Positions 1-16,714 of a stretch of 16,714 nucleotides of DNA are shown piece after piece. The stretch lies in the IMG/VR virus record IMGVR_UViG_2541047860_000004; one strand, written 5' to 3'. Position numbers and translations under genes: made by a program. The DNA is from a virus. Its lineage: Duplodnaviria > Heunggongvirae > Uroviricota > Caudoviricetes. Each line of letters starts with the position of its first letter. Within the stretch, counting starts at the first letter, position 1. Below the pieces are notes generated by a model. That model saw only the letters and a program-made list of their open reading frames with translations, was not told the origin of the DNA and did no database searches.

Positions 1-201
1 GGCTGGCCGCTGTATGAATCCCGCCTGAAGGGAAAGCTGCACGTAATCAGCAAGCGATATACGCAGCGAATTGAGCGGCATAACCTGAATCTGAGGCAGC
101 ACCTGGCACGGCTGGGACGGAAGTCGCTGTCGTTCTCAAAATCGGTGGAGCTGCATGACAAAGTCATCGGGCATTATCTGAACATAAAACACTATCAATA
201 A
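1..201 (+). CDS. insB: IS1 transposase InsB, C-terminal 66 codons (5' end outside window)
   Basis: Frame 1 translates to ...[66 protein letters not shown] with TAA at 199-201. Not in the ORF track because it has no start inside the window. Confidence 0.85.
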
Positions 202-216
202 GTTGGAGTCATTACC
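1..216 (+). mobile_element. IS1 insertion sequence, right-hand 216 bp (element continues upstream of the window)
   Basis: Bases 1-216 match, base for base, the IS1 end as I remember it, finishing with the terminal inverted repeat ...CACTATCAATAAGTTGGAGTCATTACC at 190-216. Identity is from memory, not a search. Confidence 0.9.
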
Positions 217-965
217 CTCGTCACCTTCCTCAATTGCGCTTCCGCGTATGCTTCTTCCTGCCAGCACTTTGTTACCAGTTTACCAATGACGTCCGCATAC
301 CCCTTATACCACTGATAATCGGTCAGGTCTGGTACCAGCTTCTGGACATGACGTCGTGCCAGCGTGGTCGGTAAACGACTAAACCGGTTTCCATTACAAC
401 GCCCACAAATCTTATATACCGGTACGCCATGAAACCGGGTTCTTTTTTCATCCAGAACAATCCCTTTACCCTTACACCCTCTGCACGCTGTGCTGGCTTC
501 GCCCTTACCATGGCAATGCTGACATAGTTCCTTCACCCATTCTTCCTTGATTACAGATTCCCCGCGTCTGTAGTGTTTCACCACTTCGCGCAATACATTA
601 TAAAATCCCGTACCTGAACAATGCTCACAGCGAGCCTTACTTGCCGCAGACCTGGAGTAATCAGCAAAGGCAAAACTCACGAGGTAAGGAATAATCTGTA
701 ACCGGATTTCTTCACTCAATTTGTTCAATGTCGGGTTATCCAGTGCCATCGCGTAATTTAGCAGGCCTTCAATCGCAAACTGAGGGTCCTGAACACCAAC
801 TTTTGCCAGAAATAAGGCCAACCCAAGTGGTGCTTTCGACTGCACCATCCCCTGCGCTGCCATTACATCCGTAATTGTTAAACAACCGGTGCCTGTCGCT
901 GGAGCGTCATCGCTCAATTTTGGAGATTTTGGGGAGTAATATTTTGGTAAGGCTTCAAGGTTCAT
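195..965 (-). CDS. quuQ: Phage antitermination protein Q-like (late-gene regulator), C-terminus chimeric with IS1
   Basis: Track ORF 195..995 begins with TTG; the first ATG is at 965 ([10 protein letters not shown]...) with GGAG 7 nt upstream, just after the ydfU stop at 979. Several CxxC/CxxH pairs ([30 protein letters not shown]) fit a zinc-binding Q-type antiterminator. Position next to ydfU matches the Qin order. The last 6 codons and stop (195-216) lie inside the IS1 terminal repeat. Confidence 0.75.
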
Positions 966-2374: not shown

Positions 2375-2626
2375 TTATTCTTCTGAAAAAGCAGAAAAGC
2401 CAGCTTTTATTCCGATCTCTTTCAATGCCTGTAATGAAGTGACAAACTCACCTTCGCGCAAGATAAATCCGTCCGTGACCCGAGCATCCACAAAATTAAT
2501 TAACGCAGCCCCATTCTTTCGCAAACACATAATGCGGTAATGACTAACAAGATTTCCATTTTCAACGCACACAGCATAGAGGCCATCTTCACAAAAAATT
2601 TTACGCAGTTCTTCGATGTTCATCAT
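2375..2626 (-). CDS. rem: Rem-like small prophage protein (83 aa)
   Basis: ATG-ATG start at 2626 with GGAAGG upstream; lies between ydfU and hokD as in the Qin prophage. Function unknown. Confidence 0.6.
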   Translation of the reverse strand: MMNIEELRKIFCEDGLYAVCVENGNLVSHYRIMCLRKNGAALINFVDARVTDGFILREGEFVTSLQALKEIGIKAGFSAFSEE

Positions 2627-2740
2627 CAGAATCCTTCCGGATAATTAGCTCTCCCCTTTAAGGGACCATCCCTCTTATCCCTGCGCGCTACTTAAGTATT
2701 TTTGATTCTATTCCGGCACCGTCCAGAACTTCAAACGCGT

Positions 2741-2773
2741 TGAAAATAAAAACAAAAACCCGCCGAAGCGGGT
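2741..2773 (-). terminator. Rho-independent terminator downstream of hokD
   Basis: On the minus strand, stem ACCCGC / loop TTCG / stem GCGGGT followed by a TTTTTGTTTTTATTTT run, about 70 nt after the hokD stop. Confidence 0.55.
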
Positions 2774-2842
2774 TAAGTGCGGGTGCGTTGAGGATGCCTG
2801 CCACATCAGAGGTGGCGAGGGATTTCTCCCCCGCCGGGTCTC

Positions 2843-2998
2843 TTACTCCTCAGGTTCGTAAGCTGTGAAGACAGCGACCTCCGTCTGGCCGGTTCGGATT
2901 CGTACCTCGCAGAGGTCTTTCCTCGTTACCAGTGCCGTCACTATGACGGTTAAACAGATGACGATCAGGGCGATTAACATCGCCTTTTGCTGCTTCAT
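2843..2998 (-). CDS. hokD: Hok-family membrane toxin HokD (RelF), 51 aa
   Basis: Hand translation of the minus strand gives MKQQKAMLIALIVICLTVIVTALVTRKDLCEVRIRTGQTEVAVFTAYEPEE, then TAA. Below the ORF-track length cutoff. Third gene of the relBEF operon. Confidence 0.9.
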   Translation of the reverse strand: MKQQKAMLIALIVICLTVIVTALVTRKDLCEVRIRTGQTEVAVFTAYEPEE

Positions 2999-3069
2999 AG
3001 CCTGCTTCTCCTGTCAACGCAAAGCAGAAGTGTCACCTTCGGTGCGAAACAGAGATGTCATGCTTTGGT

Positions 3070-3357
3070 TCAGAGAATGCGTTTGACCGCCTCGCTATAT
3101 ACTTCCGAGCGTTCTCTTTTCCCAACAGAAATCACGAAAACGACAACTTTCTCGTCTATAACCTGGTATACAAGGCGATAGCCTGAAGACCGGAGCTTAA
3201 TCTTGTAACAATCAGGCATACCACGGAGCTTGTTTGCTTCAATCCGGGGTGACTCAAGTACTTCAACCAGCTTCTTTTTCAACTGTTCACGTACCGTCGA
3301 GCCCAGCTTTCGCCATTCCTTTAGTGCCCGCTCGTCAAAATCCAGAAAATGCGCCAT
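3070..3357 (-). CDS. relE: RelE mRNA interferase toxin (95 aa)
   Basis: Translation MAHFLDFDERALKEWRKLGSTVREQLKKKLVEVLESPRIEANKLRGMPDCYKIKLRSSGYRLVYQVIDEKVVVFVISVGKRERSEVYSEAVKRIL recognised as E. coli RelE; start overlaps the relB stop by 1 nt (TGATG). Confidence 0.95.
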   Translation of the reverse strand: MAHFLDFDERALKEWRKLGSTVREQLKKKLVEVLESPRIEANKLRGMPDCYKIKLRSSGYRLVYQVIDEKVVVFVISVGKRERSEVYSEAVKRIL

Positions 3358-3596
3358 CAGAGTTCATCCAGCGTCACACGTACTGGCTTAGGATTACGAA
3401 GCCGTTCTTTCACTATCTCCACAAGTTCAGCATCTTCATCACTCAGGAGTGTCTGTTTGAACGGCAAGCGTTCATTGTCAGCGATATACTCGAGCATGAG
3501 ACGAAGCGCTTCAGAAGGAGTTACACCCATTTTTTCAAGCGCGGCGTAAGAACGCGCTTTAAGTTCATCGTCAATACGCAGGTTAATGCTACCCAT
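3357..3596 (-). CDS. relB: RelB antitoxin (79 aa)
   Basis: Translation MGSINLRIDDELKARSYAALEKMGVTPSEALRLMLEYIADNERLPFKQTLLSDEDAELVEIVKERLRNPKPVRVTLDEL recognised as RelB; sits directly upstream of relE. Confidence 0.95.
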   Translation of the reverse strand: MGSINLRIDDELKARSYAALEKMGVTPSEALRLMLEYIADNERLPFKQTLLSDEDAELVEIVKERLRNPKPVRVTLDEL

Positions 3597-3608
3597 GTCT
3601 TACACCTC

Positions 3609-3633
3609 TTGTAATTACAAATGTCATTACAAG
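3609..3633 (-). promoter_or_regulatory. relO-type operator repeats upstream of relB
   Basis: Perfect 12-bp palindrome TTGTAATTACAA at 3609-3620, then ATGTCATTACAAG at 3621-3633, just upstream of the relB start at 3596. Matches the hexad-repeat operator known for RelB/RelE autoregulation. Confidence 0.6.
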
Positions 3634-3926
3634 TATCGCACTACAACATGCTTAGGGCAAGTCACGAAGGAAGTCAGAAAGTAGTCGTAAGAACGGTGAT
3701 CACTGTCCGCTTTGTGCCAGGAGCAGCCATTGCTAAGTCCATCCTGTATTGTGCAGGTCAGCTCGTTTTTAAAAAGTCCGGCCATCATCTTACTGGTACA
3801 GACACCATATACTTTGTGACGGTCAGGCTACATATGCACAACTCAACTTATTCATCTATTTTTTGCTTTAGCATGTCAGTGTTGCTTTCTCGTCGGCGGG
3901 TGAGCGGTGACCTGACCTGTCGATAA
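3621..3926 (+). CDS. ydfV: YdfV-like hypothetical protein (101 aa)
   Basis: ATG ORF divergent from relB, in the position of ydfV in Qin. The start overlaps the relO operator and no family is recognisable, so it may not be a real gene. Confidence 0.3.
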   Translation: MSLQVSHYNMLRASHEGSQKVVVRTVITVRFVPGAAIAKSILYCAGQLVFKKSGHHLTGTDTIYFVTVRLHMHNSTYSSIFCFSMSVLLSRRRVSGDLTCR

Positions 3927-4859: not shown

Positions 4860-6330
4860 TATGAATGGATATGCACTCAACCGAATCGATCTTGGTTTCA
4901 ATCTTTTTTATCGGGATCAGGCTTCTTTTTAGGTAACTTCGGGGGCTTAACTTGCTGATGACTTTGCGTTCGGCGCGTAAGCCAGGGATGGTCAGCTTTA
5001 GGTTTAACATAGTATTTTGAGCGTAAATCAATACGGGCATTATCCACTCGTTCATGGACACTCTTTTCATCATCCAGTGGTATAGGCTCCGGGCCATCAA
5101 CATACTTTTCCCAGCCCAGCGCTTTCCCGTCATACAGAACGTTAATTTCACCGTCAAAGTTCTCGCATACAGTAACAACCGAATGCCTAAGTCGATATCC
5201 CCGGCCCTCACTGCGTACCTGAAACGCACTGCTTTTGTACTGGAAAGTGAGATTTTTAGACAGAACGCGCTTCGCCTGTAGGCTGAAGATATAACCCAGT
5301 TCCTCTTCAGAATGGTGCACATCAAGATGAGCATTATCAGTAGTACGAGGCGACGTAGCGAACCGGTTGTTATAGGCTTCAATAAAGGTCGGCAACCATG
5401 CATTTGCTGTTTCAATATCACTGATATTCTGAAGCCGCATTTCTTTGACCAGCCTGTCCTGTAGTGTCTGATTGGCGCGCTCTACCCGCCCTTTTGCCTG
5501 CGGGCTGTTGGCATGGATTGGCTCGATGCCCAGTGTCTTTATCGCACGAGTGAACTGGGTCAGCTCACCTTCCCGCTCTGGGTTATTTACCCTGAATATA
5601 CTGTGTCTATCAGAGTAGAGAGCGAGCGGTACGCCATGATCATTAAGGTAACCCCGGAGGGTTTCCATGTAAGCCCGGGTTGTTTCAGCAGGCACAAAAC
5701 GCAACGCCATCAACGCACTGGTGGCATCATCAATGAAAACGATCAGTGTACATCTGGGGCCTCGATTTTCAAACCAGTCATGAGGTGAGCCATCAATCTG
5801 GATCAGTTCACCGTAAGATGGTCGTCGCATGCGGCGTTGATATATACGGGCAATTTTACGACGGCGTTCACGCCATAACCCCTCTTCTATCATCCACTTT
5901 CTGAGAGTTTCAACGGATAAAGATAAACCGTGTATCTCGCGCAATTTTTCGCACGCAAACGTAGGTCCAAAATCAGCGTAACGGCCTTTGAGGAGTGAAA
6001 TTACTGTTGCTCTGAATTCAGTAGAAAAGGAATTATTAGGACGCTTTCCACGTCGGTGGGAAACCAGACCAGAAGGCCCTTCATTTCTATACCGTTGCAC
6101 CAGACGTTTAACCTGCCGAATAGAAATGCCAATGCGTGCCGCAGCTTGTTCCTGAATAATCTGAAGTCGATGGAGTTCCTTATGACTCATCGTAACAGTC
6201 TCTTTGATCATGAAAAATCCCCCAGAGAATTGTCTGGGGACATTTTAGAATGGTTCAAAGGGGACATTACAGCTTGGTGTTAACAATAGCCTGCTTCTCC
6301 GTGCCTTTCGGCACGTAAGAGGCTAACCTA
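4860..6330 (-). mobile_element. Insertion element carrying the rve-type transposase (boundaries approximate)
   Basis: Transposase ORF flanked by non-coding sequence; the K-12 Qin arrangement as I recall it has no such gene between flxA and dicC. I could not identify terminal inverted repeats or target-site duplications by eye. Confidence 0.4.
4898..6211 (-). CDS. DDE transposase, rve (integrase-core) type with N-terminal helix-turn-helix (437 aa)
   Basis: ATG at 6211 (alternative ATG at 6190). N-terminal HTH-like segment (GISIRQVKRLVQRY), then DDE-like residues (IQIDGS..., LYSDRHSIF, and the E-x6-R signature in PQAKGRVERANQTL) and a basic C-terminal tail. Single long ORF suggests an IS481/ISNCY-like element; family not resolved. 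Confidence 0.8.
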   Translation of the reverse strand: MIKETVTMSHKELHRLQIIQEQAAARIGISIRQVKRLVQRYRNEGPSGLVSHRRGKRPNNSFSTEFRATVISLLKGRYADFGPTFACEKLREIHGLSLSVETLRKWMIEEGLWRERRRKIARIYQRRMRRPSYGELIQIDGSPHDWFENRGPRCTLIVFIDDATSALMALRFVPAETTRAYMETLRGYLNDHGVPLALYSDRHSIFRVNNPEREGELTQFTRAIKTLGIEPIHANSPQAKGRVERANQTLQDRLVKEMRLQNISDIETANAWLPTFIEAYNNRFATSPRTTDNAHLDVHHSEEELGYIFSLQAKRVLSKNLTFQYKSSAFQVRSEGRGYRLRHSVVTVCENFDGEINVLYDGKALGWEKYVDGPEPIPLDDEKSVHERVDNARIDLRSKYYVKPKADHPWLTRRTQSHQQVKPPKLPKKKPDPDKKD

Positions 6331-6545
6331 CATGTGTCTAGCATGAAATTGGCCTCAGATTAATGTTAAGCGTCTTGCAGGACGCGTAATGTTAACTGGG
6401 GCTTTTCTCTATCTGCCGTTGGTGTCCATGCCCGAGGCAGATAGCCTCAAGCACCCGCAGTCATTCTACTTAACTAAGATTTCCCCGCAAACCGTTTTTG
6501 TCCAGCACAGTAAATATCCAACTAAACCAATGGAGTTCGCTGTAT

Positions 6546-6725
6546 TTACCGCCAGTATTCAATGCACATGACCGCCATGAACACCCCTAAAAAAAGGGCA
6601 TTTATATATCCAAATATTAATATCAAAACATCAACTTTTTCCATATACCTTGCTGTGAAGATGATGGGCATACATGATGCGAACAACCAGAACGCAACAA
6701 ACAAAAACTGCAATGCGTTTTTCAT
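6546..6725 (-). CDS. Candidate small hydrophobic protein (59 aa, two predicted transmembrane segments)
   Basis: ATG at 6725 preceded by a perfect AGGAGG (6730-6735, 4-nt spacing). Product MKNALQFLFVAFWLFASCMPIIFTARYMEKVDVLILIFGYINALFLGVFMAVMCIEYWR is strongly hydrophobic. AT-rich region; no homolog recognised. Confidence 0.25.
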   Translation of the reverse strand: MKNALQFLFVAFWLFASCMPIIFTARYMEKVDVLILIFGYINALFLGVFMAVMCIEYWR

Positions 6726-6979
6726 TATTCCTCCTACAATCAATGTGCAATTACATTTAAACACACCTCAATTTGGCCGGACATATAAATATCTAAACCA
6801 GAAAAAATCACTTACATAGCGTTACAAACTCTTTAGTCTAAAGGTTCATCGTAAAACATTCCCCATACTTATCAGTCCGTTCCGCGCCAGGTAGCTCATT
6901 GCCTTATCTGGCAACCTGTAATCAGGTTTCCGCTTTTTCAGTTGGCTGGTCGTTTAACCGACATAGTTAATCCATTAAT

Positions 6980-7267
6980 CTAGTTGCCGGATGTTGGTGG
7001 ATTTTCGCGTTTTAGTTGTTCATAAAAGTGCACAGCTTTAACCAGTTCTTCTGATGTAACTGGGACTGGTGAGGCAGTGAATAAGGCCTGAATTTGATAG
7101 TTCGGCCTGTCGTTACAATCCTCTTTTTTCGGTACATATTTCCAGTCACCAGACCACTACTTCCCCTGAAAGTCCGTAACGCCTTTTTTCACGTAGCGAT
7201 ATCGCCATGCCACTGGTTTTGCTTGCCCCGCCGTTTCATGCCCTTCCTGATAATTAATCTCGCTCAT
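6980..7267 (-). pseudogene. Decayed ORF interrupted by an in-frame amber codon
   Basis: Minus strand reads MSEINYQEGHETAGQAKPVAWRYRYVKKGVTDFQGK, TAG at 7157-7159, then 58 more sense codons (WSGDWKYVPKKEDCNDRPNYQ...ENPPTSGN) to TAG at 6980-6982. Upstream short ORFs (7270-7620) are frame-shifted relative to it. Confidence 0.3.
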
Positions 7268-7878
7268 TCATCGCCCCACTCATCACAATATGCTTCGACC
7301 GGAGTTTTTCCCGCTTCATAGTCATCACGCTAGGATTCGACATCAGCAGCACTTCCACCGCGTAACTCACCATAGTCCATTAATAGTTCATCCCGCTCTT
7401 CAAAACTGATGTTATATTTAGCTGAACAAAAATCAGCCACTTTGTTCTTCCTCATCGTCTTTTATTTCGTGGTATGAGTAATTGCAGTAGTTAAAGAAAA
7501 TTTCTTATGCTCCGTCATGAATTTCCTCAGGTGTTGCGTCATCGTCCACTTCGAATACATCCTCAAAATCTCCACCAGCTATTCCCGTTTCAATAATAAT
7601 TTTGAACTTTCGCATTTCACTACCGCCCTTTCGGGCGGCCTCCTGATGTTCTGAGGGTGCAGAAATCCATCCGGTTAAGGATTAAATTTTATTTACAGAA
7701 CTGAATTTAATTATTCAGATATACGTATCTGTAGCCTTACGAATCTACTCACTGGATGCCTCTTTCATAAAAATAATCCAGTGGGTTTTATCGTTTTTTC
7801 CCCTGTTCGTTGACAGATAACAGGTTTTCTGTCTGTCAGTGCCAGAATCTGGCTTACCGGTATTTGCGTTTCATTCCA

Positions 7879-8235
7879 TTAAAAAATCAGAACGCCGTGC
7901 GGCCTCAACACCCGAAAGGCTTCTTTAAATCTCTGTCGCGAATCATCACGCCAGGCATCTTTATTCAGCCGTCCATATTTCTTTCCCATCCAGGCGTTAT
8001 CACCAACACTCTCAAGATGCGGAGGGTCTAATACAACCATCGAAAAAGATGCGTCTGCAAATGATAATGCACGAAAATCTGCGATAATGTCAGGGCTGAT
8101 AATCAAGCGTCTCCCATTGCGTAATGTGTATCCTTCTTTTCTGATATCGCTGAATATCGCCCGTTCGTCAGACTTATCGAACCAGAACATGCGGCTGCCA
8201 CAGCACATATCAAGAATGGTTGCCGGTGCACTCAC
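7879..8235 (-). CDS. Class I SAM-dependent methyltransferase-like protein, probably truncated (118 aa)
   Basis: Rossmann-fold methyltransferase motifs in order: motif I ILDMCCGS, post-I FADASFSMVVLD, motif III-like LRPHGVLIF. The ORF stops right after motif III, so the C-terminal part of the fold is missing. Start is GTG overlapping the upstream stop (GTGA). Confidence 0.45.
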   Translation of the reverse strand: MSAPATILDMCCGSRMFWFDKSDERAIFSDIRKEGYTLRNGRRLIISPDIIADFRALSFADASFSMVVLDPPHLESVGDNAWMGKKYGRLNKDAWRDDSRQRFKEAFRVLRPHGVLIF

Positions 8236-8654
8236 TGCGCCACGTCCTGAAAATTACCCTGATAGAAAGCCAGTATGCGCTGCATAACTTCGCTCTTCCG
8301 GCACTCGCGACAGATTATGTTTAGGCGACTGTCGTAGCGACGTATTTCTCCGTCAGGTGATGACCAGATAAGGTCCGGATCAACCACAGCAGGTTTCTTC
8401 ACCTTTGCCCTCGAGAGTTTTTTGCGGGCGTTTTGCCAGTCCTTACGCGCCTGTTCAGAGGGGAATAACCCGTAGCCGGAGTTGTATACATCGCCACTGG
8501 CTACCAGCTCTCTGGCAAGAACGCTCATCAGATATCTAGTCGCACCTGTTTTAGCTTCCAGTTGCCGTAACGTCTCACGGCCGCTCTGGCGCACGAGTTC
8601 CACCACCTGCCATTTAATTTTTTCCCGCTCTTCTTGTGTAAAAACTTTTGCCAC
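8232..8654 (-). CDS. Hypothetical protein (140 aa) upstream of the methyltransferase-like ORF
   Basis: GTG start at 8654 with AAGGGGG 4 nt upstream; stop overlaps the next ORF start. Basic, with a CRECRK motif; no family recognised. Could be the N-terminal part of a frame-shifted larger gene. Confidence 0.4.
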   Translation of the reverse strand: MAKVFTQEEREKIKWQVVELVRQSGRETLRQLEAKTGATRYLMSVLARELVASGDVYNSGYGLFPSEQARKDWQNARKKLSRAKVKKPAVVDPDLIWSSPDGEIRRYDSRLNIICRECRKSEVMQRILAFYQGNFQDVAQ

Positions 8655-8694
8655 AAGTCCCCCTTAAAATTACCTCATGACCTGAAATCAACAC

Positions 8695-9660
8695 TTATCC
8701 TCTGAAACCAGGCGGAATTTCTGTATCCGGTTCAGAAATATGATTAACACAACGCTGTACAGGTGAACGTCCCAGGCGGATGACCAGTTCGTCCCATTTT
8801 TCGCGGAGCTTTGACGGGCTCATGATGTTTTTTACCCAGAATGGATCTCGCTGAACCCGACCAAACATTTCGCAAATTTGTCTGTGGCTTCTGCCATCCA
8901 GCATCCGCATTGTGCGCACGTCATTGGCCCAGGCAGTCCAGTTAGGCTCTTTTGGTCGCATGATCTCGCCATCATCACTGGCTGCCTGTTCGTAGAGACC
9001 CACGATCCGCCCCCAGATCCACTGCGCACACGCCAAATCCTCCCTGCTACCCCACTGGCGTTTTTTCGCACTAAACACAACCGCGTCGGAGTTCCGGGTT
9101 AAAAAATCCTGTTCAGTCGTCTGCGGGTCCGGTTGCGAAGCTTCCGGACGAAAAGTGTTTTTATTCTCTGTAGTAATCTCTGTTGTATTCTCTGTAAGAT
9201 CATCAGGCCATTTTGACCCGATGACATTGGGTCGTTTTGAACCAATGGAGCGTTTCATTTTGACCTCTTCCATCGTGTCATTTTGACCTGATGGAGCGGC
9301 GCATTTTGAACCGATGGATTCGCTCAATTTGCCACCATCTAAAAGCTCGCTCCCATAGTTGATCGTGTAGAAATTGGTCATATCGCGCTTTGATTTATTG
9401 AGCTTTTCACAACGCAAAAGCCCCAGCGTTTTCAGACTTGCAAACGCGCGCTTTAACGTTGACTCTGACCAGAATGGGAACTGTTCCAGCCATTGTTCCG
9501 TTGTGTTATAAATCCAGCGAACACCATCACATTCCATGCCGGAGTTGGTATCTCTCAACCAGTAGTGCAGTTGTTGCAAAACAATGGCTTCGTTTAAGCC
9601 AATTTTCATTGCCAGCTGCGTGTTTATAACCAGTGGGCGTTCAGCAAAAAGAAGGCTCAT
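8695..9660 (-). CDS. Lambda O-like replication initiator protein
   Basis: Track ORF 8695..9714 begins with TTG; first ATG at 9660. Sits in the O position after the cro/cII-like genes. The coding sequence contains five regularly spaced iterons that encode repeated SIGSK peptide motifs, as in lambda O where ori lies inside the gene. Confidence 0.65.
   Translation of the reverse strand: MSLLFAERPLVINTQLAMKIGLNEAIVLQQLHYWLRDTNSGMECDGVRWIYNTTEQWLEQFPFWSESTLKRAFASLKTLGLLRCEKLNKSKRDMTNFYTINYGSELLDGGKLSESIGSKCAAPSGQNDTMEEVKMKRSIGSKRPNVIGSKWPDDLTENTTEITTENKNTFRPEASQPDPQTTEQDFLTRNSDAVVFSAKKRQWGSREDLACAQWIWGRIVGLYEQAASDDGEIMRPKEPNWTAWANDVRTMRMLDGRSHRQICEMFGRVQRDPFWVKNIMSPSKLREKWDELVIRLGRSPVQRCVNHISEPDTEIPPGFRG
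9209..9317. repeat. Iteron array (putative prophage origin) inside the O-like gene
   Basis: Five copies of CATTTTGA(A)CC(N)ATGG with the TTTTGA core starting at 9211, 9235, 9258, 9281 and 9304 (spacing 24, 23, 23, 23 bp). Flanked at 9150-9205 by an AT-rich stretch with repeated TTCTCTGTA. Confidence 0.65.
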
Positions 9661-10162
9661 AATTCCATCCAGCTTTTTGTTGGTATTGCTGTCGATACGC
9701 AAGTTTGAAAGCAATTGCTTTTTCTATAAGTTCGTCAGTTTCACGATCCACTACGGCAGGATCAGCAAAAAGCAGTCCGGACTCCACCACATCGCCATAT
9801 TCTTTGTTTAACCCGGCGATCATGCACGTGATGCTTTTTCCGTCAGTAATTTCACGATACAACCTGAAATCATTAATCCGGATAGCCTCCATAATTGCAG
9901 GCACTAGCGCCGTGAACTTTTCACGCTTATCCCTGGTGTCGATAGCCTTCCAGCGTTCAAATATCTTCACTCGATTAACGCCAAGCGCTCGCTGATCAAT
10001 CGCGCCACCTTCATATGTGACACGCTGAACATCGATGTTCGGGCGCTCTTTCAAAGCCCAGAATGCTTCAGTGATTAATATCGTCGCCTGCTCCTGTGTC
10101 ATTCCTGGTCGACATATCCAGGCATCCAGAGCCTCACGAGCCTGTTCAGGAGTGATTTTCAT
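9641..10162 (-). CDS. Hypothetical regulatory protein in the cII position (173 aa)
   Basis: ATG at 10162, overlapping the dicC stop by 17 nt; the 3' end overlaps the O-like start. No family recognised with confidence. Confidence 0.5.
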   Translation of the reverse strand: MKITPEQAREALDAWICRPGMTQEQATILITEAFWALKERPNIDVQRVTYEGGAIDQRALGVNRVKIFERWKAIDTRDKREKFTALVPAIMEAIRINDFRLYREITDGKSITCMIAGLNKEYGDVVESGLLFADPAVVDRETDELIEKAIAFKLAYRQQYQQKAGWNYEPSFC

Positions 10163-10376
10163 TGTTCAACCGCCCCGCCCGCTTCGTCTTACGATATTCA
10201 TCATAAACTTTGGGATCATACTGAAGCTCCCCGCCAGATGCCTCCTGTAGACGCATCGCGCGACCTTCGGGAACTAAATCCCCTTTCCAGCTATAAAGCG
10301 AAGCCAAACGAATACCTGCTGCTTGTGCAAGTTTTGTTTTTGAACCGAAATACAAAAGAGCGTCAGTTTTAAGCAT
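10146..10376 (-). CDS. dicC: DicC, Cro-like repressor (76 aa)
   Basis: ATG at 10376 with AAGGTG upstream; product MLKTDALLYFGSKTKLAQAAGIRLASLYSWKGDLVPEGRAMRLQEASG... has a helix-turn-helix and is divergent from dicA, as in the Qin immunity region. Confidence 0.85.
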   Translation of the reverse strand: MLKTDALLYFGSKTKLAQAAGIRLASLYSWKGDLVPEGRAMRLQEASGGELQYDPKVYDEYRKTKRAGRLNNENHS

Positions 10377-10390
10377 TTAAAACACCTTTA

Positions 10391-10455
10391 TTGTTAGTCA
10401 TAACTAACAAGATAGATGTTAACAAAAACATAGTCAATACGATTTAGCATTAGCT
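10391..10455. promoter_or_regulatory. Candidate DicA/DicC operator sites in the dicC-dicA intergenic region
   Basis: Palindrome TTGTTAGT-CATA-ACTAACAA at 10391-10410 and TTAGCTAACTA at 10445-10455 overlapping the dicA start; related TGTTAG(T/C)(C/T)AT motifs recur at 10902-10917 and 10939-10948. Confidence 0.4.
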
Positions 10456-10459
10456 AACT

Positions 10460-10867
10460 ATGGAAACAAAAAATTTAACTATCGGCGAACGCATCAGGTA
10501 TCGTCGGAAAAACCTCAAACACACCCAAAGGTCTCTTGCTAAAGCCCTGAAAATCTCCCATGTGTCTGTATCACAATGGGAACGGGGTGATAGTGAACCT
10601 ACAGGGAAGAACCTTTTTGCCCTCAGCAAAGTATTGCAATGCTCACCAACATGGATTCTATTTGGCGATGAAGACAAGCAACCAACACCACCTGTTGAGA
10701 AGCCAGTTGCCTTATCCCCCAAAGAACTAGAGCTCCTTGAGCTGTTTAATGCACTGCCAGAATCAGAACAGGATACCCAGCTCGCCGAAATGCGAGCTCG
10801 AGTAAAAAACTTCAATAAACTCTTTGAAGAATTACTAAAAGCCCGTCAGCGGACAAATAAAAGATAA
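10460..10867 (+). CDS. dicA: DicA, cI-like helix-turn-helix repressor (135 aa)
   Basis: Product METKNLTIGERIRYRRKNLKHTQRSLAKALKISHVSVSQWERGDSEP... is an XRE-type HTH repressor recognised as DicA; divergent from dicC and upstream of the dicB operon. Confidence 0.9.
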   Translation: METKNLTIGERIRYRRKNLKHTQRSLAKALKISHVSVSQWERGDSEPTGKNLFALSKVLQCSPTWILFGDEDKQPTPPVEKPVALSPKELELLELFNALPESEQDTQLAEMRARVKNFNKLFEELLKARQRTNKR

Positions 10868-10927
10868 CATCATCAATGAGTTATCTTTTACCACATCAAT
10901 TATGTTAGCTATAGCATACAAAATCAC

Positions 10928-10956
10928 TTGACCGATATGTTAGTCATGGCTAATCT
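10928..10956 (+). promoter_or_regulatory. Candidate sigma-70 promoter of the ydfABC-dicF-dicB operon
   Basis: TTGACC at 10928-10933, 17-nt spacer, TAATCT at 10951-10956. The spacer contains the operator-like motif TGTTAGTCAT. About 80 nt upstream of ydfA. Confidence 0.4.
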
Positions 10957-11033
10957 TGTTTGCATCAACACACCGCACGGTGTTCTCAGCAAACAGTTCC
11001 GCTACCCCAGCGTTAAGGGGAAATGAGGTCAGC

Positions 11034-11189
11034 ATGGATACTATCGATCTTGGCAACAACGAATCTCTGGTGTACGGCGTGTTTCCAAACCAGGACGGCA
11101 CGTTCACCGCAATGACGTATACCAAAAGCAAAACGTTTAAAACCGAAAATGGTGCCCGTCGCTGGCTGGAAAGAAACTCAGGTGAGTGA
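11034..11189 (+). CDS. ydfA: YdfA (51 aa), first gene of the dicB operon
   Basis: Internal ATG at 11034 of track ORF 10956..11189, with GAGG upstream; product MDTIDLGNNESLVYGVFPNQDGTFTAMTYTKSKTFKTENGARRWLERNSGE. Confidence 0.8.
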   Translation: MDTIDLGNNESLVYGVFPNQDGTFTAMTYTKSKTFKTENGARRWLERNSGE

Positions 11190-11190
11190 T

Positions 11191-11319
11191 ATGGATTTCG
11201 ACACAATCATGGAAAAGGCTTACGAAGAATACTTCGAAGGCCTTGCCGAAGGCGAAGAAGCTCTCAGCTTCAGTGAGTTTAAACAGGCGCTTTCCAGTTC
11301 GGCAAAATCTAACGGCTGA
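11191..11319 (+). CDS. ydfB: YdfB (42 aa)
   Basis: ATG 1 nt after the ydfA stop; hand translation MDFDTIMEKAYEEYFEGLAEGEEALSFSEFKQALSSSAKSNG, then TGA. Below the ORF-track cutoff. Confidence 0.7.
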   Translation: MDFDTIMEKAYEEYFEGLAEGEEALSFSEFKQALSSSAKSNG

Positions 11320-11348
11320 TAAGCGAAACAGCACCGCGAGGAATCAGT

Positions 11349-11567
11349 ATGCAGAAACGAGAACCCGTCATCATCGCGCCAGACTATACCGATGATGAAC
11401 TTTATGAGTGGATGCGCCAGAAAATTAATGCAGCGCAGGATCTGAAATGGGCTAATGAAGCCAGGGCTAAGCAGGCTGAAAATCTGTCCGCTCTGGAGCA
11501 GGATATCACCAATCTGGAAAAAGCAGCGGCATTAAGCATTGCCAGAATGATTACATACCCGCGTTAG
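11349..11567 (+). CDS. ydfC: YdfC (72 aa)
   Basis: ATG ORF MQKREPVIIAPDYTDDELYEWMRQKINAAQDLKWANEARAKQAENLSALEQDITNLEKAAALSIARMITYPR in operon order after ydfB. Confidence 0.8.
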   Translation: MQKREPVIIAPDYTDDELYEWMRQKINAAQDLKWANEARAKQAENLSALEQDITNLEKAAALSIARMITYPR

Positions 11568-11907
11568 TAGCTAATCAACAAAGCTAAGGTTAGTAATTAA
11601 GGAGTTCTCCACGGGTGAGGTGGAGTGCGTGCGCCGGACACGGGTGCGCATCCGGAACTGACAGTTTACTGAAAGGATATTTCCCTGAAAAGTCAGACCA
11701 TAACGCGAAAGCGCACGGCGAGGTAGCTGGTTCATAGATAGCCTGTCGTTAAATTTTCGTCGACCGTGCGCTTCCGGTTGTGGCAACCCGCGAAATGGCG
11801 CGGCGGTAAGTATGGCGGGGTTATTCCTTCCCCGTTGAGGACACCGGGTTGTCAGGTTGACCATACGCTTAAGTGACAACCCCGCTGCAACGCCCTCTGT
11901 TATCAAT

Positions 11908-11965
11908 TTTCTGGTGACGTTTGGCGGTATCAGTTTTACTCCGTGACTGCTCTGCCGCCCTTTTT
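11908..11965 (+). ncRNA. dicF: DicF small regulatory RNA (about 53 nt plus U-tail)
   Basis: TTTCTGGTGACGTTTGGCGGTATCAGTTTTACTCCGTGACTGCTCTGCCGCCC followed by TTTTT, recognised as DicF; lies between ydfC and dicB with a GGCGG...CCGCC terminal hairpin. Confidence 0.85.
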
Positions 11966-12134
11966 AAAGTGAATTTTGTGATGTGGTGAATGCGGCTGAG
12001 CGCACGCGGAACAGTTAAAACCAAAAACAGTGTTATGGGTGGATTCTCTGTATCCGGCGTTAATTGTTAACTGGTTAACGTCACCTGGAGGCACCAGGCA
12101 CTGCATCACAAAATTCATTGTTGAGGACGCGATA

Positions 12135-12323
12135 ATGAAAACGTTATTACCAAACGTTAATACGTCTGAAGGTTGTTTTGAAATTGGTGTCACTATCAGT
12201 AACCCAGTATTTACTGAAGATGCCATTAACAAGAGAAAACAAGAACGGGAGCTATTAAATAAAATATGCATTGTTTCAATGCTGGCTCGTTTACGTCTGA
12301 TGCCAAAAGGATGTGCACAATGA
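12135..12323 (+). CDS. dicB: DicB cell-division inhibitor (62 aa)
   Basis: Internal ATG at 12135 with GAGGA upstream inside track ORF 12030..12323; product MKTLLPNVNTSEGCFEIGVTISNPVFTEDAINKRKQERELLNKICIVSMLARLRLMPKGCAQ. Fits the known in-phase internal translation start of dicB. Confidence 0.9.
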   Translation: MKTLLPNVNTSEGCFEIGVTISNPVFTEDAINKRKQERELLNKICIVSMLARLRLMPKGCAQ

Positions 12324-12511
12324 ATTCAGCATTTGTGCTTGTTCTGACAGTTTTTCTTGTTTCCGGAGAGCCAGTTGATATTGCAGTCAGTGTTCACAGG
12401 ACAATGCAGGAGTGTATGACTGCAGCAACCGAACAGAAAATTCCCGGTAACTGTTACCCGGTCGATAAAGTTATTCACCAGGATAATATCGAAATCCCGG
12501 CAGGTCTTTAA
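12320..12511 (+). CDS. ydfD: YdfD small membrane protein (63 aa)
   Basis: ATG at 12320 overlaps the dicB stop (ATGA); product MNSAFVLVLTVFLVSGEPVDIAVSVHRTMQECMTAATEQKIPGNCYPVDKVIHQDNIEIPAGL has an N-terminal hydrophobic segment. Confidence 0.8.
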   Translation: MNSAFVLVLTVFLVSGEPVDIAVSVHRTMQECMTAATEQKIPGNCYPVDKVIHQDNIEIPAGL

Positions 12512-12603
12512 AACAGTTCCGTAATAAATATCCGGTTTCATTCTTATATGCCAGCAATGGCAGGGATTTGTTCATCCTTAAATCTGTCATGAGGTTAAAA
12601 CAA

Positions 12604-15075
12604 ATGAGTAAAGTCTTTATTTGCGCCGCTATTCCTGACGAACTGGCAACAAGGGAAGAAGGCGCTGTGGCTGTAGCCACAGCCATTGAAGCTGGCGACG
12701 AACGCCGTGCTCGAGCAAAATTTCACTGGCAATTCCTGGAACATTATCCGGCTGCTCAGGACTGCGCTTATAAATTTATTGTCTGCGAGGATAAACCTGG
12801 CATACCCCGCCCTGCCCTCGATTCATGGGATGCTGAATATATGCAGGAAAACCGCTGGGATGAGGAGTCTGCTTCTTTTGTCCCGGTTGAGACTGAATCC
12901 GATCCGATGAACGTCACTTTTGACAAGCTGGCCCCTGAAGTACAGAACGCTGTCATGGTTAAGTTCGACACATGTGAAAACATCACCGTTGATATGGTTA
13001 TTAGCGCACAGGAATTGTTGCAGGAAGACATGGCAACATTCGACGGACATATCGTTGAAGCGTTGATGAAAATGCCAGAAGTTAACGCCATGTATCCGGA
13101 GCTTAAGTTGCACGCCATTGGGTGGGTTAAGCATAAATGTATTCCTGGTGCTAAATGGCCCGAAATTCAGGCAGAGATGCGCATCTGGAAAAAACGTCGC
13201 GAAGGTGAACGCAAGGAAACCGGAAAATACACGTCTGTTGTTGATCTCGCCCGCGCCAGAGCCAATCAACAGTACACTGAAAATTCAACAGGAAAAATCA
13301 GCCCGGTCATTGCTGCCATTCATCGCGAATACAAGCAGACATGGAAAACACTGGATGACGAACTGGCCTACGCTCTCTGGCCTAGTGATGTGGATGCCGG
13401 AAACATTGACGGCAGCATCCATCGCTGGGCAAAAAAAGAAGTTATCGACAACGACCGCGAAGACTGGAAGCGTATCTCGGCATCAATGCGCAAACAGCCT
13501 GATGCCCTTCGCTACGACCGCCAAACTATTTTTGGCCTTGTCCGTGAGCGTCCGATCGACATTCACAAAGATCCCGTAGCACTGAACAAATATATCTGCG
13601 AATACCTGACGACAAAGGGCGTGTTTGAGAATGAAGAAACAGACCTGGGCACTGTTGATGTTCTCCAGTCATCAGAAACACAAACTGATGCAGTGGAAAC
13701 TGAGGTATCTGATATCCCAAAAAATGAAACCGCGCCGGAAGCTGAACCATCTGTAGAGCGTGAGGGGCCGTTCTATTTCCTCTTCGCAGATAAGGACGGA
13801 GAAAAATACGGTCGCGCAAACAAACTCTCTGGTCTGGATAAGGCACTGGCTGCTGGCGCCACTGAAATCACAAAAGAAGAATATTTTGCCCGAAAAAATG
13901 GCACATACACGGGCTTACCGCAAAATGTAGATACCGCTGAAGATTCAGAACAACCAGAGCCGATAAAAGTTACCGCTGACGAAGTAAACAAAATTATGCA
14001 GGCAGCCAATATCAGCCAGCCTGACGCCGATAAGTTGCTTGCTGCATCACGTGGTGAATTTGTTGAAGGGATTAGTGACCCGAATGATCCGAAATGGGTT
14101 AAGGGGCTCCAGACCCGCGATTCTGTGAACCAGAACCAGCATGAATCGGAACGGAACTACCAAAAAGCGGAACAAAACAGTCCAAATGCGTTACAAAACG
14201 AGCCAGAAACGAAACAGCCTGAACCAGTAGCGCAACAGGAAGTGGAAAAAGTCTGCACCGCCTGCGGTCAGACCGGCGGCGGCAACTGCCCTGATTGTGG
14301 CGCGGTGATGGGCGACGCAACATACCAAGAAACATTCGATGAAGAGTATCAGGTTGAAGTTCAGGAAGATGATCCGGAGGAAATGGAAGGCGCTGAACAT
14401 CCACACAAGGAGAACACTGGCGGCAATCAGCATCACAATAGCGATAATGAAACTGGCGAGACGGCAGATCACCCAATTAAGGTGAACGGTCATCACGAAA
14501 TCACATCCACCAGCAGGACGTGTGACCATCTAATGATCGACCTTGAAACCATGGGAAAAAATCCTGATGCCCCGATCATCTCAATAGGTGCAATATTTTT
14601 CGATCCGCAAACCGGAGATATGGGACCGGAATTTAGTAAGACTATCGATCTGGAAACTGCTGGCGGAGTCATTGATCGGGACACCATTAAATGGTGGCTT
14701 AAGCAATCACGCGAAGCGCAATCGGCCATTATGACCGATGAAATCCCGTTAGATGATGCACTGTTACAATTGCGGGAATTTATCGACGAAAACTCCGGTG
14801 AATTTTTTGTTCAGGTTTGGGGAAATGGAGCCAACTTCGACAACACGATTTTGCGCCGTTCATACGAACGGCAGGGGATCCCCTGCCCGTGGCGTTACTA
14901 CAACGATCGCGATGTACGCACAATCGTTGAGCTGGGGAAAGCCATAGACTTCGATGCCAGAACGGCTATTCCATTCGAAGGTGAGCGCCATAATGCACTT
15001 GATGACGCCCGTTACCAGGCAAAATACGTTTCAGTTATCTGGCAAAAACTGATCCCGAGTCAGGCTGATTCTTAA
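12604..15075 (+). CDS. YdfE-like large prophage protein (823 aa) with C-terminal DEDDh-type 3'-5' exonuclease domain
   Basis: Track ORF begins with TTG at 12568; the ATG at 12604 has GAGG 8 nt upstream. Unknown N-terminal domain of about 350 aa, acidic low-complexity linker, zinc ribbon CTACGQTGGGNCPDCG (about 14254-14301), then an exonuclease domain with motifs IDLET, WGNGANFD and HNALDDA (about 14521-15072). Confidence 0.8.
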   Translation: MSKVFICAAIPDELATREEGAVAVATAIEAGDERRARAKFHWQFLEHYPAAQDCAYKFIVCEDKPGIPRPALDSWDAEYMQENRWDEESASFVPVETESDPMNVTFDKLAPEVQNAVMVKFDTCENITVDMVISAQELLQEDMATFDGHIVEALMKMPEVNAMYPELKLHAIGWVKHKCIPGAKWPEIQAEMRIWKKRREGERKETGKYTSVVDLARARANQQYTENSTGKISPVIAAIHREYKQTWKTLDDELAYALWPSDVDAGNIDGSIHRWAKKEVIDNDREDWKRISASMRKQPDALRYDRQTIFGLVRERPIDIHKDPVALNKYICEYLTTKGVFENEETDLGTVDVLQSSETQTDAVETEVSDIPKNETAPEAEPSVEREGPFYFLFADKDGEKYGRANKLSGLDKALAAGATEITKEEYFARKNGTYTGLPQNVDTAEDSEQPEPIKVTADEVNKIMQAANISQPDADKLLAASRGEFVEGISDPNDPKWVKGLQTRDSVNQNQHESERNYQKAEQNSPNALQNEPETKQPEPVAQQEVEKVCTACGQTGGGNCPDCGAVMGDATYQETFDEEYQVEVQEDDPEEMEGAEHPHKENTGGNQHHNSDNETGETADHPIKVNGHHEITSTSRTCDHLMIDLETMGKNPDAPIISIGAIFFDPQTGDMGPEFSKTIDLETAGGVIDRDTIKWWLKQSREAQSAIMTDEIPLDDALLQLREFIDENSGEFFVQVWGNGANFDNTILRRSYERQGIPCPWRYYNDRDVRTIVELGKAIDFDARTAIPFEGERHNALDDARYQAKYVSVIWQKLIPSQADS

Positions 15076-15086
15076 TGTTCAACTGT

Positions 15087-15118
15087 CGCCGGTTGTGACT
15101 GGTATTCTGCAACCGGCG
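15087..15118 (+). other. Stem-loop between the YdfE-like gene and xis
   Basis: Perfect 9-bp inverted repeat CGCCGGTTG (15087-15095) and CAACCGGCG (15110-15118) with a 14-nt loop; no T-run follows, so not a canonical terminator. Confidence 0.3.
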
Positions 15119-15147
15119 CTCGTCTGATGTAAGAGATAAAGAAATCG

Positions 15148-15399
15148 ATGAGCGAAGTAATCATGATTGTCTCTCCCGGCAAATGGGTATCCGAAGAGCA
15201 GTTAATTGCGCTGAAAGGAATAAAAAAAGGTACGTTAAAAAAGGCCCGGGAAAAATCGTTTATGGAAGGAAGGGAATATAAGCATGTCGCTCATGACGGT
15301 ATGCCATGGGATAACAGTCCATGCTTTTACAACCTGGAAGAAATTGATCGCTGGATTGAGCGCCAGGCATCAGCAAGACCAAGACGTCATCTTACTTGA
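15148..15399 (+). CDS. Excisionase-like protein (83 aa)
   Basis: Small basic ORF immediately upstream of the integrase gene on the same strand. Ribosome-binding site is weak and the start is uncertain (alternative ATG at 15163). Confidence 0.65.
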   Translation: MSEVIMIVSPGKWVSEEQLIALKGIKKGTLKKAREKSFMEGREYKHVAHDGMPWDNSPCFYNLEEIDRWIERQASARPRRHLT

Positions 15400-15433
15400 C
15401 TAAAAGCCACACTAACTAATGAGAGAAGTTGAA

Positions 15434-16714
15434 ATGAAATATCCGACAGGCGTGGAAAACCATGGAGGGAAATTACGTATCTGGTTTGTTTATAAAGGCG
15501 TAAGAGTCAGGGAAAACCTGGGGGTTCCTGACACAGCAAAAAACAGGCGCGTTGCAGGTGAGCTACGCGCCTCTGTTTGTTACGCAATAAAAACTGGTGT
15601 TTTCGACTATGCAAAACAGTTTCCCTCCTCACGCAATCTGGAAAAATTTGGTGAGACTCGACAAGATTTAACCATAAAAGAACTGGCTGAAAAATTTCTG
15701 GCACTGAAAGAAACTGAAGTCGCAAAAACATCACTCAACACATACCGTGCCGTCATCAAAAATATCCTGAGCATAATCGGTGAAAAAAATCTTGCCTCAT
15801 CGATTAATAAAGAAAAATTACTGGAGGTTCGTAAAGAGCTACTGACTGGATACCAGATCCCCAAAAGTAACTATATTGTTACACAACCAGGGAGATCGGC
15901 TGTAACTGTAAATAATTACATGACAAATCTTAACGCCGTGTTCCAGTTTGGTGTTGATAACGGTTACTTGGCAGATAACCCGTTTAAGGGGATCTCGCCA
16001 TTAAAGGAATCAAGAACCATTCCGGATCCTCTTTCGCGGGAGGAATTCATCCGTCTTATCGATGCGTGCAGAAATCAGCAAGCCAAAAATTTATGGTGTG
16101 TTTCTGTTTATACTGGCGTTCGCCCTGGTGAGCTGTGTGCACTTGGATGGGAGGACATAGATCTGAAAAATGGAACAATGATGATCAGGAGAAATTTAGC
16201 AAAAGACCGTTTCACGGTACCAAAAACACAGGCGGGAACCAATCGGGTCATTCATCTTATTAAGCCAGCAATCGACGCTCTCCGGAGTCAGATGACATTA
16301 ACGAGACTGAGCAAAGAGCATATCATTGATGTTCACCTCAGAGAGTATGGCAGAACAGAAAAACAAAAATGCACCTTTGTTTTTCAACCTGAAGTGTCAG
16401 CGAGAGTAAAAAATTATGGTGACCATTTTACCGTTGACTCAATAAGGCAGATGTGGGACGCAGCGATAAAACGTGCCGGACTCCGCCATCGAAAATCATA
16501 TCAGTCGAGACATACTTATGCCTGCTGGTCGCTGACAGCTGGTGCTAATCCGGCATTTATAGCAAACCAGATGGGCCATGCAGATGCGCAAATGGTATTT
16601 CAGGTATACGGAAAATGGATGTCTGAAAACAATAATGCACAGGTAGCTTTGTTAAATACACAGTTAAGCGAGTTTGCCCCAACCATGCCCCATAACGAAG
16701 CAATGAAAAATTAA
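15434..16714 (+). CDS. Phage integrase, tyrosine recombinase family (426 aa)
   Basis: Track ORF begins at ATG 15419; the ATG at 15434 has a better purine-rich upstream region. Catalytic residues in the expected order: R in GVRPGEL, H-x-x-R in SRHTYA, and MGHAD...VYGKW with the presumed catalytic Tyr. The stop codon is the last triplet of the window. Confidence 0.9.
   Translation: MKYPTGVENHGGKLRIWFVYKGVRVRENLGVPDTAKNRRVAGELRASVCYAIKTGVFDYAKQFPSSRNLEKFGETRQDLTIKELAEKFLALKETEVAKTSLNTYRAVIKNILSIIGEKNLASSINKEKLLEVRKELLTGYQIPKSNYIVTQPGRSAVTVNNYMTNLNAVFQFGVDNGYLADNPFKGISPLKESRTIPDPLSREEFIRLIDACRNQQAKNLWCVSVYTGVRPGELCALGWEDIDLKNGTMMIRRNLAKDRFTVPKTQAGTNRVIHLIKPAIDALRSQMTLTRLSKEHIIDVHLREYGRTEKQKCTFVFQPEVSARVKNYGDHFTVDSIRQMWDAAIKRAGLRHRKSYQSRHTYACWSLTAGANPAFIANQMGHADAQMVFQVYGKWMSENNNAQVALLNTQLSEFAPTMPHNEAMKN

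Follow-up and report, generated by a model that had tools for sequence, protein, structure and literature searches.

In a Q-dependent cassette, the Q gene comes first, and after it lie promoter, sigma-dependent pause element (SDPE), terminator and late genes. Q is a trans-acting protein that binds DNA and RNA polymerase (RNAP); it acts at the QBE/SDPE of PR', where it loads onto polymerase that has paused (PMC9388147). This order, with the Q gene directly upstream of promoter, pause element, terminator and late genes, is seen in the Qin prophage of Escherichia coli K-12, in phage PhiR42_1 (PV340562.1, 48.7 kb) and in Shigella phage SfV. In K-12 Qin, the Q gene, quuQ (ydfT), has ydfU, rem, hokD, relBE and flxA as its upstream neighbors and a PR'-like region, cspF, cspB and a lysis cassette downstream. 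The genes for replication, integration and morphogenesis are gone from K-12 Qin. A literature search on quuQ and Qin found no functional data for QuuQ, and a search on PhiR42_1 found nothing.

We examined a 16,714-nucleotide stretch of a caudoviral record (IMGVR_UViG_2541047860_000004; hereafter, the window), which begins inside an IS1 element next to quuQ. The sequence was followed past IS1 on scaffold KE701069.1 of assembly GCA_000459435.1 (hereafter, L003), a scaffold that matches the window without a difference over 10,965 bp (100% identity) and has an N-gap exactly at the window start. On this basis, the window very probably derives from that assembly or a clone of it. The prophage shares the upstream and downstream neighbors of quuQ with K-12 Qin, but in K-12 there is no IS1 at quuQ and the protein ends at Arg250. 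Also unlike K-12 Qin, it has int, xis and exo on one side and terminase and portal genes on the other, where the available sequence ends. Its gene order is that of the complete PhiR42_1 genome, to which it is 99.4-99.8% identical over the 25.8 kb examined, and SfV carries the same module of Q, PR' and terminator at about 91% identity. Both phages lack IS1 and encode a 250-aa Q. The Q/PR'/6S RNA/tR' switch of lambda is alike in having a Q of the same family (PF03589) with the same end (..VTR) and a terminator followed by lysis genes. The sequence from -35 to -10, where the QBE of lambda sits, differs, and the predicted leader is about 70 nt compared to 194 nt in lambda. In addition, the morons cspF, cspB and ynfU precede the holin gene here, and IS1 and a six-residue tail on Q are present.

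The IS1 junction at the end of quuQ

The first 216 bases of the window are identical (216/216, 100%) to bases 553-768 of a complete 768-bp IS1 that served as the reference, the copy at 2449-3216 of another E. coli genome (L002). K-12 MG1655 and some 2,300 further E. coli genomes with the locus match the window from exactly 217 onward. The IS1 end therefore lies at 216, where the first-pass annotation had placed it, with the outer end of the terminal repeat (..GGAGTCATTACC) at that position. Translation of window 1-198 matches positions 66-131 of 131 of Pfam DDE_Tnp_IS1 (E 1.2e-34), which corresponds to the C-terminal 66 residues of the IS1 transposase. This 3' end of insB' and the extended Q reading frame are convergent and overlap by 7 nt. 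The features of the junction are collected in Table 1.

Table 1. Features at the quuQ-IS1 junction, in window coordinates
Feature	Position	Strand or sequence	Remarks
IS1, right-hand 216 bp	1..216	+	window starts inside IS1, at assembly gap
insB' (IS1 transposase ORF), 3' end	1..201	+	66 codons, then TAA at 199-201
IS1 right terminal inverted repeat	194..216	GGTAATGACTCCAACTTATTGAT on minus strand	exact match at end of reference IS1
Q ORF as read in the window	965..195	-	ATG at 965; TGA at 197..195
IS1-encoded Q tail, V-M-T-P-T-Y	215..198	-	stop TGA at 197..195
Junction codon, Arg250	216..218	-	AGG here, AGA native; third base (216) from IS1; synonymous
9-bp IS1 target-site duplication, Q-side copy	217..225	CTCGTCACC on +, GGTGACGAG on -	second copy in L003
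quuQ/ydfT native CDS, complete, Q-lambda-family late-gene antiterminator	216..965	-	250 codons

The other IS1 end and a 9-bp target duplication, which the first-pass annotation had named as things to look for upstream of the window, were both found in L003. Positions 11256-11467 of this scaffold are the first 212 bp of the 768-bp IS1 at 100% identity, and Zn_ribbon_InsA was recorded across the gap from the window-side end. The sequence GGTGACGAG flanks IS1 on both sides (L003 10742-10750 and 11468-11476), while in K-12 and PhiR42_1 it is present as a single copy and the two IS1 flanks are exactly contiguous. PhiR42_1 thus provides the IS1-free counterpart: window 217-16714 matches its positions 1065-17561 (99.8%), L003 11468-20771 matches 17553-26855 (99.4%), and the two matches overlap by exactly 9 bp, 17553-17561. 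Beyond the far IS1 end, L003 reads GGTGACGAG, then ATAA, which completes the native AGA-TAA, and then the native downstream sequence, so the native TAA stop now lies past the element. In L003, the only scaffold with both IS1 ends, the interior of the element is the N-gap. Measured from end to end, IS1 in L003 spans 717 bp, which is compatible with one 768-bp IS1. A single 768-bp IS1 between the ends is thus deduced from the two ends, the duplication and the gap size, not from read-through sequence.

Instead of a simple insertion, the junction could stem from faulty assembly or from a deletion or inversion mediated by IS1, or it could be part of a composite element. The N-gap inside IS1 would allow for this, as would the fact that most other contigs encoding the extended Q end inside IS1, and IS1-flanked deletions are known at the locus in other strains (L015-L017). 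However, independent assemblies from NCBI, ENA and Logan share the junction (19 contigs in all), the two ends are bordered by a perfect 9-bp direct repeat, the flanks join exactly in K-12 and PhiR42_1, and the size of the gap suits one IS1. We consider an artefact or rearrangement the most improbable of the readings discussed here. IS1 went in where the Q gene, at 47-50% GC, meets a tract of 35-39% GC. IS1 prefers AT-rich DNA, and the position agrees with this preference. Compared to classical IS1 insertions (768 bp, imperfect terminal inverted repeats of about 23 bp, 9-bp duplication, AT-rich preference), the terminal repeats, the duplication and the location at an AT-rich edge are alike; the sole peculiarity is a frame that yields a short in-frame tail instead of a truncation. 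By these sequence features, the insertion is an ordinary IS1 event.

The extended reading frame ends in ...K V T R / V M T P T Y TGA, compared to ...KVTR-TAA in K-12; at the codon level, AGA-TAA of K-12 is replaced by AGG-GTA-ATG-ACT-CCA-ACT-TAT-TGA, and the product has 256 aa. K-12 QuuQ/YdfT and the window Q are identical at 250 of 250 residues. It had been claimed from the first reading of the sequence that IS1 supplies the last six codons of Q and its stop and that the C-terminus may be altered. The C-terminus is indeed altered, by a six-residue extension, and VMTPTY and TGA do lie in the repeat; the six codons are extra, however, and replace none of the native ones. The annotation had also suggested aligning homologs to find missing C-terminal residues, and the alignment found none missing, with the native end at Arg250. 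A truncation of Q was ruled out, as every native residue is present and six are added.

QuuQ matched Pfam PF03589 (Antiterm) with 181 bits (cut-off 26.7; E 3.9e-54) and the lambda Q structures 7UBM (E 4.5e-36) and 4MO1 (E 3.9e-24), and its alignment with 7UBM spans the first to the last residue. PF03589 is the Q-lambda family according to the paper describing the lambda Q structures (PMC9388147). Lambda Q likewise ends in ...AVTR. A Q82-type identity was also considered and was dropped because of the family assignment and the end-to-end alignment with lambda Q. QuuQ and its 250-252-aa relatives have in common a 43-residue insertion relative to lambda Q. It yields four CXXCXGXG motifs (a DnaJ-like two-zinc module, PF00684, E 1.4e-8; QuuQ residues about 121-158, window about 492-605, minus strand), compared to the single zinc-ribbon "arm" of lambda Q. 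The lambda arm touches DNA, sigma region 4 and the RNAP zinc-binding domain; since the module differs, by analogy the QuuQ subfamily may engage these three partners differently.

The late-gene cassette beyond IS1

The first-pass annotation stated that IS1 separates Q from the late promoter, the qut site and the lysis genes, and it proposed a search for the late promoter beyond IS1. The separation is real: promoter, pause site and lysis genes were all found past the other IS1 end, together with the terminator, holin, lysozyme, Rz, terminase and portal. The Q-dependent cassette is unchanged and begins 44 bp past that end, counted from the IS1 end to the -35 hexamer. The late promoter is TTGCAT-17-TAAAAT, compared to TTGACT-17-TAAATT for PR' of lambda, with an equal 17-bp spacer. 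The pause element AACGATGGG lies six bases past the -10 and is identical to the sigma-dependent pause element of lambda, where the 6S transcript starts; in the alignment of the prophage late promoter region with PR' of lambda, TCAACGATGGG is identical. The start site of the late transcript was placed by homology with lambda and is, hence, predicted. On this numbering, the -10-like pause element occupies transcript positions +1 to +6 (AACGAT, then GGG), identical to lambda and in the same register after the -10 hexamer, and native sequence is kept to about -80 of the predicted start, counting the duplicated nine bases.

An intrinsic terminator follows about 40-70 nt downstream, with the hairpin AAAACCCGCU-GAUG-AGCGGGUUUU and a U-rich tail. 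The 79-nt predicted transcript folds at -30.4 kcal/mol (z -4.67), a consensus terminator scan matched the same spot as the hairpin, and a rho-independent terminator is annotated at the corresponding position of SfV. The 158 bp following IS1 are identical to PhiR42_1 and near to those of the temperate phage SfV. Past the terminator, the gene order in L003 is ynfS, cspF, cspB, ynfU, holin, ydfR, lysozyme, Rz, cspI, Nu1, gpA, gpW and portal. L003 stops within the portal gene; for lysis, terminase and gpW, the product lengths equal those in PhiR42_1. A conserved block, ATGATT...GATGGC.ACAT, is shared with lambda in the sequence from the Q stop to the -35 (L003 11481-11511; lambda L012 711-752), although QuuQ and lambda Q are only about 40% identical; the block is on the promoter side of IS1.

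IS1 and the duplication put the late cassette 777 bp further from the Q gene. The first-pass annotation concluded that separating Q from the late promoter, qut and lysis genes in this way would uncouple antitermination and make the prophage defective. IS1 does sit between the Q gene and PR', and lambda Q has some preference for acting in cis, both of which speak for such an effect. However, the cassette of PR', SDPE and terminator is intact along with its late genes and native upstream sequence, Q and its target are on the same DNA molecule, and Q loads as a protein at the QBE/SDPE with no need for read-through from its own gene. Since Q loads as a protein at PR', the added distance should not uncouple antitermination, and the late-gene switch is, by analogy with lambda, probably not broken by separation as such. 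Q action is independent of transcription running from the Q gene into the late operon. Uncoupling by distance is thus very improbable in our estimate, though not quite as remote as an artefact at the junction. Most homologs end at the position where the native protein ends, and the late promoter and lysis genes are intact past IS1; these are the two findings that the first-pass annotation itself had named as refuting its claim, and together they contradict the uncoupling reading. With the late cassette intact and Q having lost no residues, a defect of the prophage through separation by IS1 finds no support either.

An outward hybrid promoter, built jointly from the left end of IS1 and target DNA, was sought by a consensus scan and not found. 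By eye, TTGGCA-16/17-GATAAA at the IS1 left end and target DNA is a weak promoter candidate, and any transcript from such a promoter would also end at tR'.

These data can be put together as follows. In a Qin-type lambdoid prophage, one copy of IS1 would have entered quuQ at its final codon. The insertion made a 9-bp target duplication and kept the 250 native residues, with Arg250 changed from AGA to AGG. Translation now runs six codons (VMTPTY) into the right terminal repeat of IS1 and stops at TGA. Expression of Q from the early operon would be unaffected, as the context upstream of the insertion is unchanged, and the diffusible Q would bind its site at PR' and load onto the paused RNA polymerase despite IS1. 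A phenotype, if any, would stem from the six added residues, whose place in the protein is immediately after the counterparts of L202 and T206 in lambda Q.

Occurrence of the allele and other features of the prophage

An exact look-up of the 256-aa product returned the 19 contigs mentioned above, while the native 250-aa protein was found on at least 1,000 contigs. The exact junction was not present as one piece in any of 5,426 complete E. coli genomes, in which the top matches were IS1 at other nearby sites. A scan of species-representative genomes for the Q-side junction gave 0 matches, and so did a scan of JGI metagenomes for the junction on the other side; L003 is therefore the sole scaffold behind what is said of the far side. 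Two assemblies with the same Q-IS1 junction (L007 and L008) are without window 4866-8250 and 9179-16545, which is most of the early region, and a third (L009) is without window 7423-9882, the replication region. Since the extra deletions, in early, replication and integration regions, differ among the carriers, the junction would predate further decay in the lineage. Judged from these assemblies, the allele is rare and inherited within a lineage where the prophage goes on decaying, and the extra deletions are compatible with a prophage that is no longer under selection.

A 1.3-kb AT-rich interval downstream of quuQ has independently received IS1 several times in other complete E. coli genomes (at about 2995-3800 in coordinates of K-12, L001; 2449-3216 in L002; 949-1716 in L013, L014, L015, L016 and L017), as found by a search that detects only copies in the query orientation. 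Three of these are simple insertions with 9-bp duplications, at the cspF 5' end (GGAATTGTC), in cspB (GGAGAAATA) and just past ynfS (AGCAGACTC). In three further strains (L015-L017), IS1-flanked deletions remove the lysis cassette.

Other elements were seen in the window away from the junction. An intact ISNCY-family transposase ORF of 437 aa (4898-6211, minus strand) lies inside the prophage, with the replication region on one side and flxA on the other. PhiR42_1 has this element too, its record giving two shorter CDS there, and in L010 it is split; its presence in PhiR42_1 makes it a shared passenger and not strain-specific. Adjoining this ORF is a full-length match to the Rfam sok antitoxin RNA (104 bits; 6285-6456, minus strand), far from the annotated hokD at about 2843-2998, which suggests a second hok/sok-type locus or a remnant of one. 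DicF sRNA was also matched at full length (76.7 bits; 11909-11960, plus strand), in a dicB-type early region as in K-12 Qin.

The C-terminal tail of Q and its consequences

Loading of lambda Q involves a refolding of its residues 195-207. Within this segment, L202 and T206 touch first the RNAP flap-tip helix and then the Q torus, and proteins substituted there lose antitermination with DNA binding unaffected (PMC9388147). In the C-terminal block, residue n of lambda Q is QuuQ n+43, and L202 and T206 are thus QuuQ L245 and T249. The position of the end was compared in two sets of homologs. The close set consisted of 115 full-length cluster representatives from many enterobacterial genera at 63-100% identity, and about 112 of them end exactly at ..VT[R]. 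The others include one with a one-residue extension and one that is truncated, and the IS1 fusion alone has a long tail. The distant set was drawn from 50%-identity clusters, with 80 representatives whose alignment reaches the C-terminus. Of these, 55 stop at the corresponding residue, 15 run on for one to three residues, 7 (about 9%) have natural tails of 5-8 residues, and the other 3 are one to three residues short or are fragments. The tails are similar in two of these seven clusters, NDNLTDIA and VSDLINIA. Neither K-12 QuuQ nor any other homolog examined carries VMTPTY. By this comparison, short C-terminal tails are tolerated in some natural Q subfamilies.

The six-residue tail is the only plausible lesion at this locus. 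The evidence on its effect is mixed, and a substantial loss of Q function through it is possible but, in our view, unlikely. VMTPTY might disable Q by sterically disturbing the C-terminal helix, in which case the late genes would be off and the prophage "grounded." The need for L202/T206 (QuuQ L245/T249) in antitermination and the refolding of the C-terminal 12 residues would make the region sensitive, and the proline within the tail could interfere, given an end position that is conserved in lambda Q, nearly all close homologs and most distant clusters. The further prophage decay in L007, L008 and L009 would also be in keeping with a grounded prophage. On the other hand, distant Q proteins carry natural tails of similar length in 7 of 80 clusters and one to three added residues in 15 more, conservation of the stop codon among close relatives is expected from descent alone, and prophage decay is common with or without such a lesion. 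We therefore regard disablement of Q by the tail as doubtful. A stronger version is less likely still: VMTPTY could make a natural separation-of-function allele in which RNAP engagement is blocked and the late genes stay silent, in a prophage that otherwise matches the complete phage PhiR42_1, and the repeated IS1 insertions and deletions at the locus could then reflect selection to disarm lysis.

The reading we favor, at a probability of about 0.62, is a simple IS1 insertion that extends Q, with a late-gene switch that is not uncoupled by separation and an effect that is most likely neutral or mildly impairing. The gene is best annotated as quuQ/ydfT extended by six residues from IS1; labels such as truncated or disrupted Q are unsuitable, and the IS1 insertion alone is no ground for calling the prophage defective. 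Beyond annotation, the IS1-Q allele matters little. If the tail of this allele does inactivate Q, however, it would offer a convenient natural means to probe the C-terminal contact that cryo-EM structures of lambda Q show, and it would add a further case of IS-mediated prophage domestication.
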